This document shows, piece by piece, positions 12,027 through 15,227 of a stretch of 47,658 nucleotides of DNA; the stretch's first letter is position 1; each line of letters opens with the position of its first letter. The position numbers were made by a program, and so were the translations under genes. The notes beneath the pieces were generated by a model that worked only from the letters and a program-made list of their open reading frames with translations, searched no databases and had not been told where the DNA came from. Source of the DNA: Kiritimatiellales bacterium (GTDB lineage: Bacteria; Patescibacteriota; Gracilibacteria; Peribacterales; Peribacteraceae); the NCBI GenBank assembly GCA_021734665.1, contig JAIPIN010000003.1:1-47658 (forward strand), in the 5' to 3' direction.

Positions 12027-13238
12027 GTGTCATTCAACCATTCTGATATTCGGCTTCAATTCCCCATCTTAAAGAAGGGCACATATCTTGATAGCGCCGC
12101 AACTGCACAAAAGCCCCAAGTAGTAATTGACTCAATGAAACATTTTTACGAAACAGAAAACGCAAATGTCCACCGAGGAATGCATATGCTTTCGGAAAAA
12201 GCTACAACCGCCTTCGAAGAAGCGCGCACTTCTGTACAAAAATTTATTAATGCTAAATCAGCAGAAGAAATTATATTCACTTCTGGTAGTACTGAGGGCA
12301 TCAACCTAGTTGCAAAAACATGGGGGAAAGAAAATTTAGGAGAAGAAGATTCAGTTTTGATAACTCTGCTGGAACATCATTCAAACATTACACCTTGGAT
12401 ACAGCTAAAAGATGAAAATGACTGCGCAGTAGAATGGGTGGAACTTGATCAAAATGAAAATATTGATATAACTCAGCTAGACAAACATCTGGCGAATGGA
12501 AATGTAAAACTAGTTGCGATCACTGGGCAGAGCAATGTAACTGGTGTGCGAACTCCTCTTAAAGAGATAATAAATAAGACACACGAAGCAGGTGCATTGG
12601 CACTCGTAGATGCAGCACAACTTTCTGCACATCATCCAATTGATGTACAAGATTTAGAATGTGACTTTTTGGTTTTGTCTGGACATAAACTTTATGGTCC
12701 TACAGGAATAGGAGTTTTGTATGGCAAACGTGAACTGCTCGAAAGTATGCCCCCCTTCTTAACTGGCGGAGGAATGATAAAAGAAGTTAAACGTGATCAC
12801 TTCACATGTGCAGCCATTCCAACAAAATTTGAAGCAGGCACTCCACCAATCGCACAAGCAGTGGGGCTGCGGACTGCCATAGATTGGCTTTTGCAATTTA
12901 ATTGGGAAGATATAGAAGCACATGAGCGCTCACTTATAGAAAAATCATTTTCTGAACTCAGAAAAATTGAAGGGCTTACAATCCTAGGACCAAGTGATCC
13001 AAAAAATATTTCTGGATGCTTAAGTTTTGTAATTGATGGCATTCATCCGCATGACCTTACAGATATTATTGGGCAGAAAGGCGTGTTCATGCGTGCAGGC
13101 CATCACTGCGCTCAACCTTTGCATGAGCATTACGGAATCCCAGCATCCACCCGCCTCTCGATTGGAATTTATAATAATGGAGAGGACATAGAAAAAATAA
13201 CTCCCGCCATCCAAGAGGCAATAAAGATATTTTCCTAG
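12027..13238 (+). CDS. sufS: Cysteine desulfurase, SufS type
   Basis: YLDSAATAQKP, EHHSN, DAAQ, SGHK (PLP Lys), RAGHHCAQP. Start chosen at GTG 12027 (the track gives 11988). Confidence 0.93.
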   Translation: MSFNHSDIRLQFPILKKGTYLDSAATAQKPQVVIDSMKHFYETENANVHRGMHMLSEKATTAFEEARTSVQKFINAKSAEEIIFTSGSTEGINLVAKTWGKENLGEEDSVLITLLEHHSNITPWIQLKDENDCAVEWVELDQNENIDITQLDKHLANGNVKLVAITGQSNVTGVRTPLKEIINKTHEAGALALVDAAQLSAHHPIDVQDLECDFLVLSGHKLYGPTGIGVLYGKRELLESMPPFLTGGGMIKEVKRDHFTCAAIPTKFEAGTPPIAQAVGLRTAIDWLLQFNWEDIEAHERSLIEKSFSELRKIEGLTILGPSDPKNISGCLSFVIDGIHPHDLTDIIGQKGVFMRAGHHCAQPLHEHYGIPASTRLSIGIYNNGEDIEKITPAIQEAIKIFS

Positions 13239-13275
13239 CCCCAGCCCCAGCCCTAGCCCCAGCCCAAGCCCCACC
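13236..13275. repeat. Hexamer array (NAGCCC)x6 forming the entire sufS-sufU spacer
   Basis: tagccc cagccc cagccc tagccc cagccc aagccc cacc ATG. Confidence 0.95.
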
Positions 13276-13698
13276 ATGGACCTCTACGCAGAAAACATCC
13301 TTGACCACTTCAAAAGCCCTCGTAATAGAGGAGAGATCAAAGACCCAACTGTAGAGCATGAAGAATTGAACCTGAGTTGTGGAGATAAAATCACAATTCA
13401 ATTGGCCATAGAGAATGATGTGATTAAAGAAAGCCAGTGGAAAGGAAGCGGATGCGCGATCAGCATTGGAGCAATGTCTATATTATCCGAAGAACTGGAA
13501 GGGAAATCTGTAGAAGAAGCCTCAGCTTTATCTATAGATGATGTTAAGAAGTTACTTGGAGTACCAATCAGCCAAAGAAGACTGAAGTGTGCGATGCTGT
13601 GTTTACATACATTGAAGAATGCGCTGCATTCATTTAAGCATGAAGATACTCAAAGTTGGACAGAGACTATTGGACAAGAAGAAATGAAAAATGAATAA
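13276..13698 (+). CDS. sufU: Fe-S cluster scaffold / sulfur transfer protein (SufU/IscU family)
   Basis: LYAENILDHFKSPRNRG, NLSCGD, GCAIS, RLKCA. Confidence 0.9.
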   Translation: MDLYAENILDHFKSPRNRGEIKDPTVEHEELNLSCGDKITIQLAIENDVIKESQWKGSGCAISIGAMSILSEELEGKSVEEASALSIDDVKKLLGVPISQRRLKCAMLCLHTLKNALHSFKHEDTQSWTETIGQEEMKNE

Positions 13699-13754
13699 TG
13701 AAAAATGAATAATTAGTTCAAGGTAGCATTTTTCATTCTTAATTATTAATTTTC
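13681..13754. repeat. Inverted pair of 7-mer arrays (AATGAA[A/T]) / ([T/A]TTCATT)
   Basis: Encodes the last SufU codons and the stop. Same family at 20760-20856, 37841-37931 and 39408-39459. Confidence 0.8.
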
Positions 13755-13756
13755 CA

Positions 13757-14014
13757 GCCGCCCTAGCTCCAGCCTTCGCTAACAGCCGTCGCCAAGGCTA
13801 TGGCCGTCAAGAAGCTACGGCTGGCAGGCAGTGCCCAGACCCGCGCAGCGGGGCGTGATAAAAAAGACTAGCTCGATTGCGGAGCAATTAGAATCATTCA
13901 CCTCAACGGAACAAGCCGCACTAGCTCCAGCCTTCGCTAAAGCTACGGCCGGCAGGCAGTGGTAGAGCACCTCGGTTGCGGAACCATTAGACTCATTCAC
14001 ACTCAACGTAACAA
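13757..14014 (+). pseudogene. Two tandem 5' fragments of tRNA-Thr, each interrupted by a 30-nt palindromic element
   Basis: GCCGC(C/A)CTAGCT at 13757 and 13915. Inserts at 13769-13828 (nested, 30+30 nt) and 13927-13956. A shared ~40-nt spacer follows each fragment. Confidence 0.9.
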
Positions 14015-14089
14015 GCCGCCCTAGCTCAGTGGTAGAGCACCTCCATGGTAAGGAGGGGGTCACGAGTTCAAATCTCGTGGGCGGCTCCA
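14015..14089 (+). tRNA. tRNA-Thr(GGT)
   Basis: Acceptor stem GCCGCCC/GGGCGGC, D arm AGCTCAGTGGTAGAGC, anticodon arm CCTCC-ATGGTAA-GGAGG, GTTCAAATC, encoded CCA. Confidence 0.97.
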
Positions 14090-14527
14090 TTCGTCTTCGC
14101 GGTATACAAGCAACAAGGCTACGATCAATCAATTCCATTAATAATGTTGGCGATCCCGCTACGACGCAATGGTGTTTTGTGTTACATTTCATTGCTATGG
14201 ATTACGTTTATATCTTGGAATCAGCACGCAGCACGCAGCATTGGTATGTAGGCATAACTAATGACCTACAAAGACGACTTAATGAGCATAATAAAGGCGA
14301 TTCAATACACACGAATAAATACAAACCTTGGATCATTAAAAATTACATTGCATTTAAAGATAGGGCAAAGGCAGAAGCATTTGAACAATACTTAAAAACA
14401 CAATCGGGAAGATCATTTGTAAAGAGACACTTTTAAATAACAAGCCCGTCGCGCCGAAGCGGGATCGCCACTGCAAGGATATCATTAATGGACACAAGCA
14501 TACCGATTACGTTACCGCGAAGGCGGA
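14090..14527. mobile_element. Candidate element: GIY-YIG gene flanked by ~80-bp imperfect inverted repeats
   Basis: 14090-14172 is inverted relative to 14446-14527. The best block is 14148-14172 vs 14446-14470 (21/25 match). Confidence 0.65.
14197..14436 (+). CDS. Small stand-alone GIY-YIG nuclease (79 aa)
   Basis: YVYIL...YVG.T.DL.RRL.EHN.G...T...P....E..LK. Start moved to ATG 14197 because the longer ORF runs through the tRNA. Confidence 0.92.
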   Translation: MDYVYILESARSTQHWYVGITNDLQRRLNEHNKGDSIHTNKYKPWIIKNYIAFKDRAKAEAFEQYLKTQSGRSFVKRHF

Positions 14528-14546
14528 CAAAAAAAGCACATAAATC

Positions 14547-14575
14547 TTGACGCCTCGTGCCTACCCCCTTAATCT
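14547..14575 (+). promoter_or_regulatory. Sigma70-type promoter for rpsF-rpsR
   Basis: TTGACG-N17-TAATCT. Confidence 0.65.
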
Positions 14576-14581
14576 GCGTCA

Positions 14582-14627
14582 GCACGATTTCCTCATATCC
14601 AAATATGAGGTTTCACCCAAGAATCGT
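14582..14627 (+). promoter_or_regulatory. Structured rpsF leader, candidate S6:S18 autoregulatory RNA
   Basis: ACGATT/AATCGT outer stem and CCTCATAT/ATATGAGG inner stem with a C-rich 3' internal loop, abutting the ATG. Confidence 0.5.
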
Positions 14628-15227
14628 ATGATATCTTTACAATCAACAGCGGCAACAGATACAGATTTAGACGATCAGGAGACTGATGTGCGTCTTTATG
14701 AGTGTTCTGTGCTGTATCCTTTCCCTCTTAACCAAAAAGAGGAAAAAGATATTATTGATGGTGTAGAAGAGATATTCAAAGAGGCAGGCGCCAGAGAAGT
14801 AGCCAAAGATAAATGGGGACGCAGAGGGCTCGCCTACCCTATTAAAGGACACAACGAAGGTGCATTTATTATCTACCATCTTGAAATTGATCCTTCTAAA
14901 GTTAAAGAAATTAATGAAGCTTTGCGCATTTCGCACGGAGTACTTAGACATCTTATGATCAAGCCCCCTAAGGGATACCAAATTACAAAGTTTTCAGCAT
15001 CTTACGAAAAGTGGCTAAATGAACGCGAGACTGTAGAAGAAAAACGAGAATCAGAGAAAGAAGAAGAGCTACAGCGCCGTGTAACAGAAAAAGCCAGACG
15101 CCAAGCTAAGCGTGTAGAAAAAGAACAGAAGGATAAGCCCCCTGTAACAAAAGAAACTACTGTAGAAAAAGACAAACTCTCCGAAGAGTTGGAAAAGCTT
15201 ATTTCCGATGATGAACTAGATCTCTAA
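14628..15227 (+). CDS. rpsF: 30S ribosomal protein S6 with long charged C-terminal tail
   Basis: YE..., WGRRGLAYPIK, G.F, VLRHL. Start at ATG 14628; the TTG at 14547 is the -35 box. Confidence 0.92.
   Translation: MISLQSTAATDTDLDDQETDVRLYECSVLYPFPLNQKEEKDIIDGVEEIFKEAGAREVAKDKWGRRGLAYPIKGHNEGAFIIYHLEIDPSKVKEINEALRISHGVLRHLMIKPPKGYQITKFSASYEKWLNERETVEEKRESEKEEELQRRVTEKARRQAKRVEKEQKDKPPVTKETTVEKDKLSEELEKLISDDELDL

Follow-up and report, generated by a model that had tools for sequence, protein, structure and literature searches.

Introduction

REP/REPIN repeats, which are associated with RAYT proteins, are short GC-rich imperfect palindromes that occur in many copies, are non-autonomous and form inverted doublets near a nuclease gene. 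The same features are found in the DNA hairpin described here, a 30-nucleotide (nt) element, named E in this study, that interrupts truncated copies of a tRNA 5′ end (hereafter, stubs) upstream of tRNA-Thr(GGU) in a contig of a Kiritimatiellales bacterium; the whole analyzed stretch of this contig, 47,658 nt long, is called the window. We consider that E is a tiny non-autonomous mobile hairpin and that the intact tRNA is regenerated beside the hits by partial tandem duplication and unequal crossover, and we give this reading a probability of about 0.6. Compared with the GTAG foot of REP/REPIN, the complement of E (..CC GTAG C..loop..G C GAA GG..) also has GTAG, but enclosed by a further 6-bp stem. 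REP/REPIN is extragenic, whereas E is found in frame in open reading frames (ORFs) and inside tRNA gene copies. REP repeats also flank their own RAYT (Y1_Tnp) gene, and E fails in this respect, because the three Y1 genes of the present genome lie with other REPs.

Palindrome-associated elements of the IS200/IS605 type have subterminal hairpins at both ends, a TnpA and a fixed tetra- or pentanucleotide target, whereas E is a single 30-nt hairpin with no Y1 association and a weak target consensus. The small dispersed repeats (SDR) of heterocystous cyanobacteria, reportedly described by Elhai et al. in 2008, are said to be 21-27 nt long, to form a compensated hairpin, to nest in themselves and to lie within tandem heptamer repeats. 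E resembles them in its self-nesting, its embedding in heptamer repeats and its covarying hairpin, but the host range of SDR (sequence families SDR1-8) is reportedly one cyanobacterial group while E occurs in many phyla, and the likeness noted here is one of description. We know of no link of SDR to tRNA genes or to a nuclease gene. The Rickettsia palindromic elements (RPE), attributed to Ogata et al. in 2000, are reportedly selfish and found in frame in protein genes and in RNA genes without destroying the host gene. They are 100-150 nt long and restricted to a genus. E shares with RPE the palindromic form and the in-frame insertion in protein genes and RNA genes, at 30 nt against 100-150 nt, and to our knowledge regeneration of the target by partial duplication has not been described for RPE. 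In fungal mitochondria, GC clusters or double-hairpin elements of 30-80 nt are present in an AT-rich genome, and free-standing GIY-YIG genes bring a duplicated gene end. E is likewise a GC-rich hairpin of this size order that moves, on our reading, within an AT-rich genome, and in both settings GIY-YIG genes go together with a partly duplicated target gene. These clusters are organellar and share no sequence with E, and the hairpin and GIY-YIG phenomena are not known to be mechanistically coupled in mitochondria.

Genomic islands and phages leave attL/attR copies of tRNA genes, so that, as in the present array, a truncated copy stands beside an intact tRNA and tandem accretion is seen (tRNA gene fragments are treated in PMC9897764, of which part was available). 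Here, however, the 5′ and not the 3′ end is duplicated, the units are 88-158 nt long without an ORF, and a third of the tRNA species is affected, not a single one. No integrase or cargo was found within the array; a genome-wide integrase search was not made. In the available part of PMC11893778, the Ssn family is described as single-domain, stand-alone GIY-YIG proteins that cut single-stranded DNA (ssDNA) beside hairpin repeats flanking their own genes. The repeats concerned, NTS/dRS3 and the Ssn-related motifs (SRM), are like E in being hairpins of about 28-30 nt, present in tens to hundreds of copies, for which orientation matters (PMC11893778, same part). The likeness extends to hairpin repeats flanking a small single-domain GIY-YIG gene (for E, at 25 of 29 such loci vs 6 of 30 Y1 loci), but E falls outside the published SRM pattern, and the ORF in the window, whose nearest solved relatives are UPF0213 proteins, is only a candidate member of the Ssn clade cd10448. 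The word 'tRNA' does not occur in the text of PMC11893778, and its passages covered here do not mention duplicated gene ends or nesting.

Literature searches, including searches with the core sequences and peptides as text, found no published description of E or of tRNA 5′ stubs with hairpin inserts. The phenomenon is real and general, and E is best filed among the small palindromic mobile repeats. Two things about E are unusual: it is systematically coupled to tRNA genes that are partly duplicated, and it has a candidate GIY-YIG partner.

Results

The genome under study (G000) is metagenome-assembled, with 1,046,436 bp in 62 contigs (C numbers), and is 83% complete. Relatives are labeled G for genomes and L for locus stretches (L001 is G180 and L002 is G183). 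We called tRNA genes with ARAGORN, RNA families with Rfam, and protein domains with Pfam and NCBIfam. The array at tRNA-Thr(GGU) is composed of the following features, where X denotes a separate hairpin block.

14015..14089, plus strand: intact tRNA-Thr(GGU), the only intact gene of this kind called by ARAGORN, 67.4 bits with the Rfam tRNA model, identical to the tRNA of L001/G180
13757-13914, plus strand: unit 1, comprising stub bases 1-12, an outer E holding an inner E, bases 13-17, X, a decayed remnant and a 40-nt spacer
13757..13768, plus strand: 5′ fragment 1, tRNA-Thr(GGU) bases 1-12, identical to 14015-14026
13769-13781 plus 13812-13828 (span 13769..13828), plus strand: outer 30-nt E of unit 1, split 13 + 17 by the inner E in its loop
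13782..13811, plus strand: inner 30-nt E variant, ACAGCC GTC GCCAAGGC TAT GGCCGT CAAG, nested in the outer E with one of the two loop A's on either side
13829..13833, plus strand: tRNA bases 13-17 (CAGTG), resuming after the insert (repeat family D3)
13834..13866, plus strand: block X, made up of the hairpin CCCGC-GCA-GCGGG and then GTGATAAAAAAG; fragment 1 has this second insertion in its D loop
13867-13874, plus strand: decayed remnant of tRNA 22-29, ACTAGCTC, which together with spacer S1 aligns to 13966-14014 of unit 2
13875-13914, plus strand: spacer S1 (40 nt), from the alignment with unit 2
13915-14014, plus strand: unit 2, comprising stub, uninterrupted E, exact tRNA 13-29 and spacer
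13915..13926, plus strand: 5′ fragment 2, tRNA bases 1-12, one of them mismatched (C7 to A) (repeat families D1, D2)
13927..13956, plus strand: uninterrupted 30-nt E of unit 2, CCAGCC TTC GCTAAAGC TAC GGCCGG CAGG
13957..13973, plus strand: tRNA bases 13-29, exact copy (17/17, repeat family D4)
13974..14014, plus strand: spacer S2 (41 nt), homologous to S1, ending in ACAA as the tRNA-Thr leaders of other Peribacteria do

The three tRNA starts of the original prediction, with only the last complete, are thus confirmed, the intact gene by ARAGORN and Rfam and the two upstream copies by the sequence and the repeat tables, and the start of fragment 1 is 258 nt from the working gene. The spacer and the tRNA start that follows it are shared by the two units over 57 nt with 87.7% identity, which agrees with the proposed duplication of the spacer along with the fragments. 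When the inner E is removed, the outer E of unit 1 is identical to the E of unit 2 at 29 of 30 positions, and alignment of the units with the tRNA and with relatives showed that unit 2 corresponds to unit 1 without the inner E and X, and that its tRNA 13-29 is clean. The original prediction had missed block X and the decayed tRNA 22-29 remnant, both of which are in unit 1. It had also placed a promoter-like TTGCGG...CACACT in the spacer; a consensus scan did not call this motif, and in the region it gave 2 sites elsewhere against 1.9 expected. An Rfam scan of positions 13000-15000 with E-values up to 1 returned tRNA only, plus a sub-threshold antisense match, and E matches no Rfam family. Block X folds with z = -1.95 relative to shuffled sequences, and with covarying stems it is also present at tRNA-Thr(CGU) on contig C56, in G184 and G182, and at many tRNA-Thr loci of Peribacteria.

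Within the tRNA, the site of E is in the D stem, immediately 5′ of the conserved CAGTGG. Placing E after tRNA base 12, as had been proposed, leaves an ambiguity of 1 nt, and this was resolved in favor of that placement because, across the family, E begins with a T or C that pairs with the A or G preceding the CARG tail. Therefore, E is 30 nt long, and the insertion in the tRNA lies between bases 12 and 13.

E has the consensus Y-CCNCC TTC G[inner stem-loop]C TAC GGN'GG-R CARG. Its outer stem is 6 bp long (Y-C-C-N-C-C against G-G-N'-G-G-R) and leads to an internal loop in which TTC/TAC is conserved; next comes a variable inner stem-loop, ranging from GCTAAAGC to 18-nt hairpins, and at the end the CARG tail. 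The length of E is 30 nt and reaches about 45 nt. To assess the stems we used 122 copies from other genomes, taken from among the matches listed from species-representative genomes and selected by the 18-nt core alone. Because selection used only the core, the flanks of these copies are an unbiased test of the structure. The four flanking pairs were Watson-Crick in 95, 104, 105 and 105 of the 122 listed copies; for the first three pairs, shuffles averaged 51, 77 and 96 and did not exceed 63, 87 and 102. The inner Y/R pair was C-G or T-A in 118 of the 122. The structure of E is supported by covariation, not by energy. The same holds for the compensatory GCC/GGC for GCT/AGC change seen between the two copies in unit 1: the pair change is real and family-wide, but the stem as proposed closes a 2-nt loop and is rejected by the energy model.

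A structural scan of G000 gave 79 matches to E, compared with 8-18 in Markov shuffles, and about 42 of them survived a stricter filter; we estimate about 40-55 copies in the genome. E is therefore the discrete 30-nt insertion unit that had been proposed, and genome searches find it inserted precisely, and clearly so, at many other loci. In 54 of 121 copies, with 38 expected, the base that follows E is the same as its first base. A 1-nt target duplication was rejected, since this excess is too weak and the copies starting with T in tRNA fragments contradict it; the absence of target duplication noted originally thus stands. Nine of the 121 copies from other genomes lie inside the loop of a larger perfect hairpin, where 1.3 were expected and at most 5 were found in 200 shuffles. 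Targeting to hairpins, as predicted, is accordingly seen for this minority, but most copies are not so placed, and the tRNA site is in the D stem. Overall, the target consensus of E is weak.

The arrangement at tRNA-Thr(GGU) recurs throughout the genome. We counted a stub when the first 13 nt of a tRNA gene were copied with at most 1 mismatch within 600 nt upstream of it, an event with a chance of about 4e-4 per tRNA by our own arithmetic. ARAGORN called 36 tRNA genes in total, 11 of which have such a copy of their own start. In 10 of the 11, E directly follows the stub, and at Arg-TCG, Pro-TGG and Pro-CGG it follows a decayed stub, so that 13 of the 36 tRNA genes have a stub with an E variant, extending to other tRNA loci the fragment-plus-element arrays of the window. 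The tRNA-Phe stub has an X-like hairpin only, tRNA-Met is a doubtful case, and none of the 11 stubs found by the strict definition is free of a hairpin. E in the stubs is always in the orientation of the tRNA. After E, the tRNA sequence resumes for 0-22 nt and is followed by an AT-rich spacer of 10-60 nt and then the intact gene, which is kept downstream at every stub locus, consistent with the original view that an intact tRNA is preserved.

The stubs are partial tandem duplications. At tRNA-Gln (C8) there are three identical 88-nt units. tRNA-Thr(CGU) on C56 has an outer E, a deleted inner E and X as in unit 1, and its stub matches its own tRNA. Tandem duplication of the leader with the 5′ part of the tRNA predicts that the sequence 5′ of the leftmost stub should resemble the spacer, and by our own reading it does so at Leu-GAG (C49), Gln (C8) and the tRNA-Thr of G184. 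The pattern also extends over the order: of 81 genomes, 53 contain the junction TAGCT+YCNNCCTTCG, with 120 matches in all, and 23 contain the reversed control, with 28 matches. In 80 loci of relatives, 16 of 76 tRNA genes have an upstream copy of their own start.

Some tRNA loci showed further particulars. tRNA-Lys(CUU) (C24:16099-16173) and tRNA-Lys(UUU) (C30:10857-10931) are identical except for the anticodon and have homologous modules of stub, E and spacer; therefore, the module was copied with the gene, and likewise at both tRNA-Pro loci. In L138 (G003:C8:396530-399754), two opposed tRNA-Val genes near a GIY-YIG gene each have tandem stub and E junctions 94 nt apart. A hairpin, CGTAAAGGCG.GAAGC..CTTTACG, directly follows the CCA end of three tRNA genes, namely Arg(TCG) on C8, Leu(GAG) on C49 and Arg(TCT) on C21.

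E is polymorphic between species, also at the tRNA-Thr locus. tRNA-Thr lies beside sufU in 26 of 30 scanned loci (25 GGU, 1 UGU), and the SufU relatives are all from metagenome bins of Peribacteria/Peregrinibacteria (Patescibacteria). In the closest relative, L001/G180 (SufU 81% identity), the same upstream flank, gcatttttcattcttaatt.ttaattttcca, runs directly into an intact tRNA identical to that of G000, and the first 9 nt downstream of the tRNA are also the same as in G000. Therefore, fragment 1 is at the former position of the tRNA 5′ end. G180/L001, G183/L002 and G181 have no insertion at this site; G000, G184, G182 and G185 have one. G184 and G182 have stub, E, AGTG, X and spacer, with different covarying stems in E and X, and G185 has stub and E. 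This layout in other species means that it is older than the species of G000. Judged from these alignments, it would most simply have been lost in G180 by deletion between direct repeats.

Outside tRNA genes, E was found in frame within long ORFs, in uvrC and in ORFs of 408-807 amino acids (aa). In the uvrC protein alignment, the rows of G132 and G200 (wrong frame) were ignored, and G116 is absent from the DNA alignment. In uvrC, G000 and its relatives (L153-L159) have in-frame inserts of 10-12 residues at two neighboring sites in the N-terminal GIY-YIG domain. The E of G000 at C7:22392-22421 (L151 893-922) adds PPVASAKGGG. Site 1 is filled in G000, G180 and G183 (decayed) and empty in G179, G184, G181 and G182, whereas site 2, 40 nt away, has other E variants and these only in G180, G183 and G182. 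These patterns of presence and absence in uvrC, a conserved gene, speak most strongly for the gain or loss of E as one unit.

The nesting of E in the loop of another E, reported originally for the window, was found at three independent places: at position 13782 of the window, at C30:3918, also between the loop A's, and at C46:502, within one base of that site. A deleted derivative is at C56:429. Heptamer repeats are precisely interrupted by E on C40, C43 and C36 in this genome and in L262, L280 and L252 elsewhere.

AT-rich heptamer arrays (TGAATAA / TGAAAAA) in inverted orientation are present at positions 13682-13752 of the window and on many contigs (C43:23229-23297, C45:11086-11177). They form long hairpins after genes and are an intergenic repeat throughout the genome. 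Between sufS and sufU, around positions 13235-13277 of the window, there is a tandem hexamer run whose minus-strand translation is GLGLGLGLG, and similar GGGCTT/GGGCTA arrays occur elsewhere, e.g. C36:12541-12618.

The exact 18-nt core, CCTTCGCYAARGCTACGG, is present in 88 of 200 Peribacterales genomes, where the reversed control gave 1 match, and in 17 of 120 other Patescibacteria genomes, where the control gave 0. It was found in at least 122 stretches of species-representative genomes, and the phyla among the matches listed are Acidobacteriota, Verrucomicrobiota, Bacteroidota, Planctomycetota, Proteobacteria, Nitrospirota and others.

A possible source of the mobilizing activity lies next to the array:

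14090..14512, plus strand: cassette with a 79-aa stand-alone GIY-YIG ORF (14197-14436; Pfam PF01541, E-value 1.8e-15), enclosed by a long imperfect inverted repeat

The ORF is in the loop of the inverted repeat, whose arms consist of three segments, 14094-14105/14497-14510, 14134-14145/14481-14492 and 14148-14172/14446-14470. The ORF begins 108 nt downstream of tRNA-Thr. It matched PF01541 only in Pfam and nothing above the cut-off in NCBIfam. The cassette is missing between tRNA-Thr and rpsF in L002. G000 has seven small GIY-YIG genes in addition to uvrC, and four of the small ones adjoin tRNA genes: that of the window, one on C8 after tRNA-Arg, one on C54 after tRNA-Asp, and one on C21 about 100 nt upstream of tRNA-Arg(TCT), which has no stub, so that no GIY-YIG gene lies inside a 5′ array there.

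E-type hairpins associate with GIY-YIG genes and tRNAs. For homologs of the window ORF in other genera, 21 of 29 loci have a tRNA and 25 of 29 have E-type matches by the scanner, many of them inverted pairs (CCGGC TTC G..C TAC GCCGG) between the tRNA 3′ end and the gene. For comparison, the 30 loci of the Y1 transposase family, from 29 genomes, gave scanner matches in 6, only one of which is a clear E, and a tRNA in 0 of the 29 outside G000. RAYT-like Y1 ORFs of about 150 aa are present in G000 at C25:26226-26558, C20:4921-5130 and C16:18078-18239, each between its own REP-type hairpins, one of which is a classical GTAG-hairpin. A RAYT was rejected as the partner of E because these three ORFs are flanked by different REPs and because of the single clear E in the 30 Y1 loci. 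As to an RNA route, no reverse transcriptase was found in the 83%-complete genome. From the association at these loci, we tentatively name a small stand-alone GIY-YIG nuclease as the likeliest candidate for the enzyme that mobilizes E, an assignment that may well prove wrong.

Discussion

In the reading that we prefer, E, mobilized in trans, would insert without target duplication. Its preferred targets would be the site just 5′ of the conserved D-loop sequence of the CAGTGG type, the loop of E itself and the loops of some other hairpins. The enzyme would act on hairpins in single-stranded DNA, and the intermediate would be ssDNA. At tRNA-Thr(GGU), E would have entered the D stem and separated base 12 from base 13. 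Because the tRNA gene is needed, only lineages with a regenerated intact copy would persist. Regeneration may occur by illegitimate or unequal exchange between interrupted and intact sister copies, duplicating the leader and the first 13-35 nt of the tRNA, and the product would be the 5′ fragment with E, followed by a spacer and an intact tRNA. The array may then have grown when tRNA 22-29 and the decayed copy of it in unit 1 (GACTAGCTCG) took part in an unequal crossover, by which the 5′ part of the former intact gene would have become unit 2; a crossover at this point explains why unit 2 has a clean tRNA 13-29 and no X. The inner E would have inserted later into the loop of the E of unit 1.

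The original prediction had supposed repeated insertion and duplication. Duplication and the later inner E agree with our results, but the simplest account of the two E copies, which share their position in the tRNA, is a single insertion that was copied. They are identical at 29 of 30 positions while the spacers have diverged to 87.7%, indicating the same insertion, carried along or converted, and not an independent hit; other members of the E family differ much more.

Whether the insertion came first and the rescue second is, in our judgment, about an even question. In the opposite order, the leader and the tRNA 5′ end would duplicate alone (e.g. through slippage where a gene is structured and strongly transcribed), E would find a neutral landing pad in the dead copy, and an E inserted there would break up the repeat and so protect the duplication from deletion. 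A hairpin-free stub does exist at tRNA-Ser in L018, arrays do expand by units (three at Gln, two in L052, two in the window), and E enters dispensable DNA elsewhere, as in the heptamer repeats of C40, C43 and C36. This order is nevertheless fairly improbable as an account of the array, because nearly every stub carries E or X (13 with E and 1 with X only) and because the right end of the duplication falls 0-22 nt past the insertion point, as the rescue of an interrupted gene predicts.

A mobile E with regeneration of its target also has to be weighed against the stubs being scars of larger elements that target tRNA genes, either GIY-YIG homing cassettes or islands of the integrase type, with E as a leftover terminal hairpin that is itself immobile. 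The GIY-YIG genes beside tRNAs at 21 of 29 loci, bounded by E-type hairpins, would fit such scars, as would contig C54, where the order is intact tRNA-Asp, tRNA-Asp 3′ fragment, E hairpins and GIY-YIG gene. We regard this origin as improbable, since precise insertions of about 30 nt in uvrC, in heptamer repeats and in other E copies have no cassette remnants, and in G000 no GIY-YIG gene lies between any 5′ fragment and its tRNA.

It is also conceivable, at a slim chance, that the stub and its hairpins are a functional module selected as a tRNA leader, for processing, transcription control or binding of a host protein. The identity of the 18-nt core across phyla, the maintenance of stems by compensatory change, the constant tRNA orientation of E, and the fragment, E, X and spacer kept at tRNA-Thr in G000, G184 and G182 would be expected of such a module. 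The same E, however, stands in frame in proteins, in heptamer repeats and nested in itself, close relatives lack it at the same tRNA, stubs decay (the two Pro loci), and no Rfam family is matched.

An assembly artefact, in which reads from strains or other tRNA loci were wrongly joined into tandem units, is highly improbable: the genome is metagenome-assembled in 62 contigs and tRNA sequences recur across the organisms of the sample (depth peaks at 14012-14079), but a second assembler gave 13400-14051 without a difference or an alternative joint, and 13 tRNA genes of G000, as well as genomes assembled independently, show the same architecture with unique sequences. The second assembly is that of run X1, probably the source sample, and is therefore from a different assembler and not from independent data; its contigs matched 13400-14051 and 14033-14400 with 0 differences, and none skips the array. 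Runs X2, X21 and X3 covered the stretch at low depth or in the tRNA only.

Several points weigh against a mobile E, or against the enzyme proposed for it. The steps of mobility were not directly observed, and the order of events is not rigorously separable, given the one insertion-free stub (tRNA-Ser, L018). The identical core across phyla could also mean a host function. Folded as ssDNA, the E copies of the window are no better than shuffles (z = +0.72, +0.11, -0.96). Block X is not dispersed, no copy having been found outside tRNA fragments in G000, and X as a dispersed family was rejected; some hairpins in the fragments are thus not mobile repeats. Read support for the array comes only from the contigs of the probable source sample. 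As to the enzyme, the GIY-YIG cassette of the window is bounded by a long inverted repeat and not by clear E doublets, and the match of its ORF to UPF0213 proteins, the nearest solved relatives, is weak (E-value 2.4e-4). The SRM pattern HGTCWY..RNCYNB matches 0 E copies, and the genome has 3 matches compared with 0-1 in shuffles. GIY-YIG enzymes are hydrolases for which we know of no strand-transfer activity, which leaves the joining step unexplained.

A wider reading, which we think unlikely, is that E and small GIY-YIG nucleases form a pan-bacterial ssDNA mobile system that homes to tRNA genes and hairpin loops, in which insertion is systematically coupled to the regeneration of essential genes by partial duplication, and of which the 5′ stubs before a third of the tRNA genes are the footprint. 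Such a system would amount to a class of transposon-like elements that relies on a GIY-YIG hydrolase and not on an HUH, DDE or recombinase enzyme.

Conclusions

If our reading is true, E would be among the smallest mobile DNA units known; its 18-nt core is the same in Patescibacteria as in Acidobacteriota, Verrucomicrobiota and Bacteroidota. For annotation, tRNA stubs, spurious peptides (SFAKATEDK, YGGQA) and 10-residue inserts in proteins such as UvrC would become explainable and could be masked, and for assembly, E-type repeats are places where contigs break. For enzymology, E would offer a cheap and concrete test substrate for uncharacterized GIY-YIG nucleases, which may serve as site-specific cutters of ssDNA. 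For the organism itself, it would mean that, in a streamlined genome of 1 Mb, essential RNA genes present in a single copy can be hit and the loss made good by duplicating the interrupted end.

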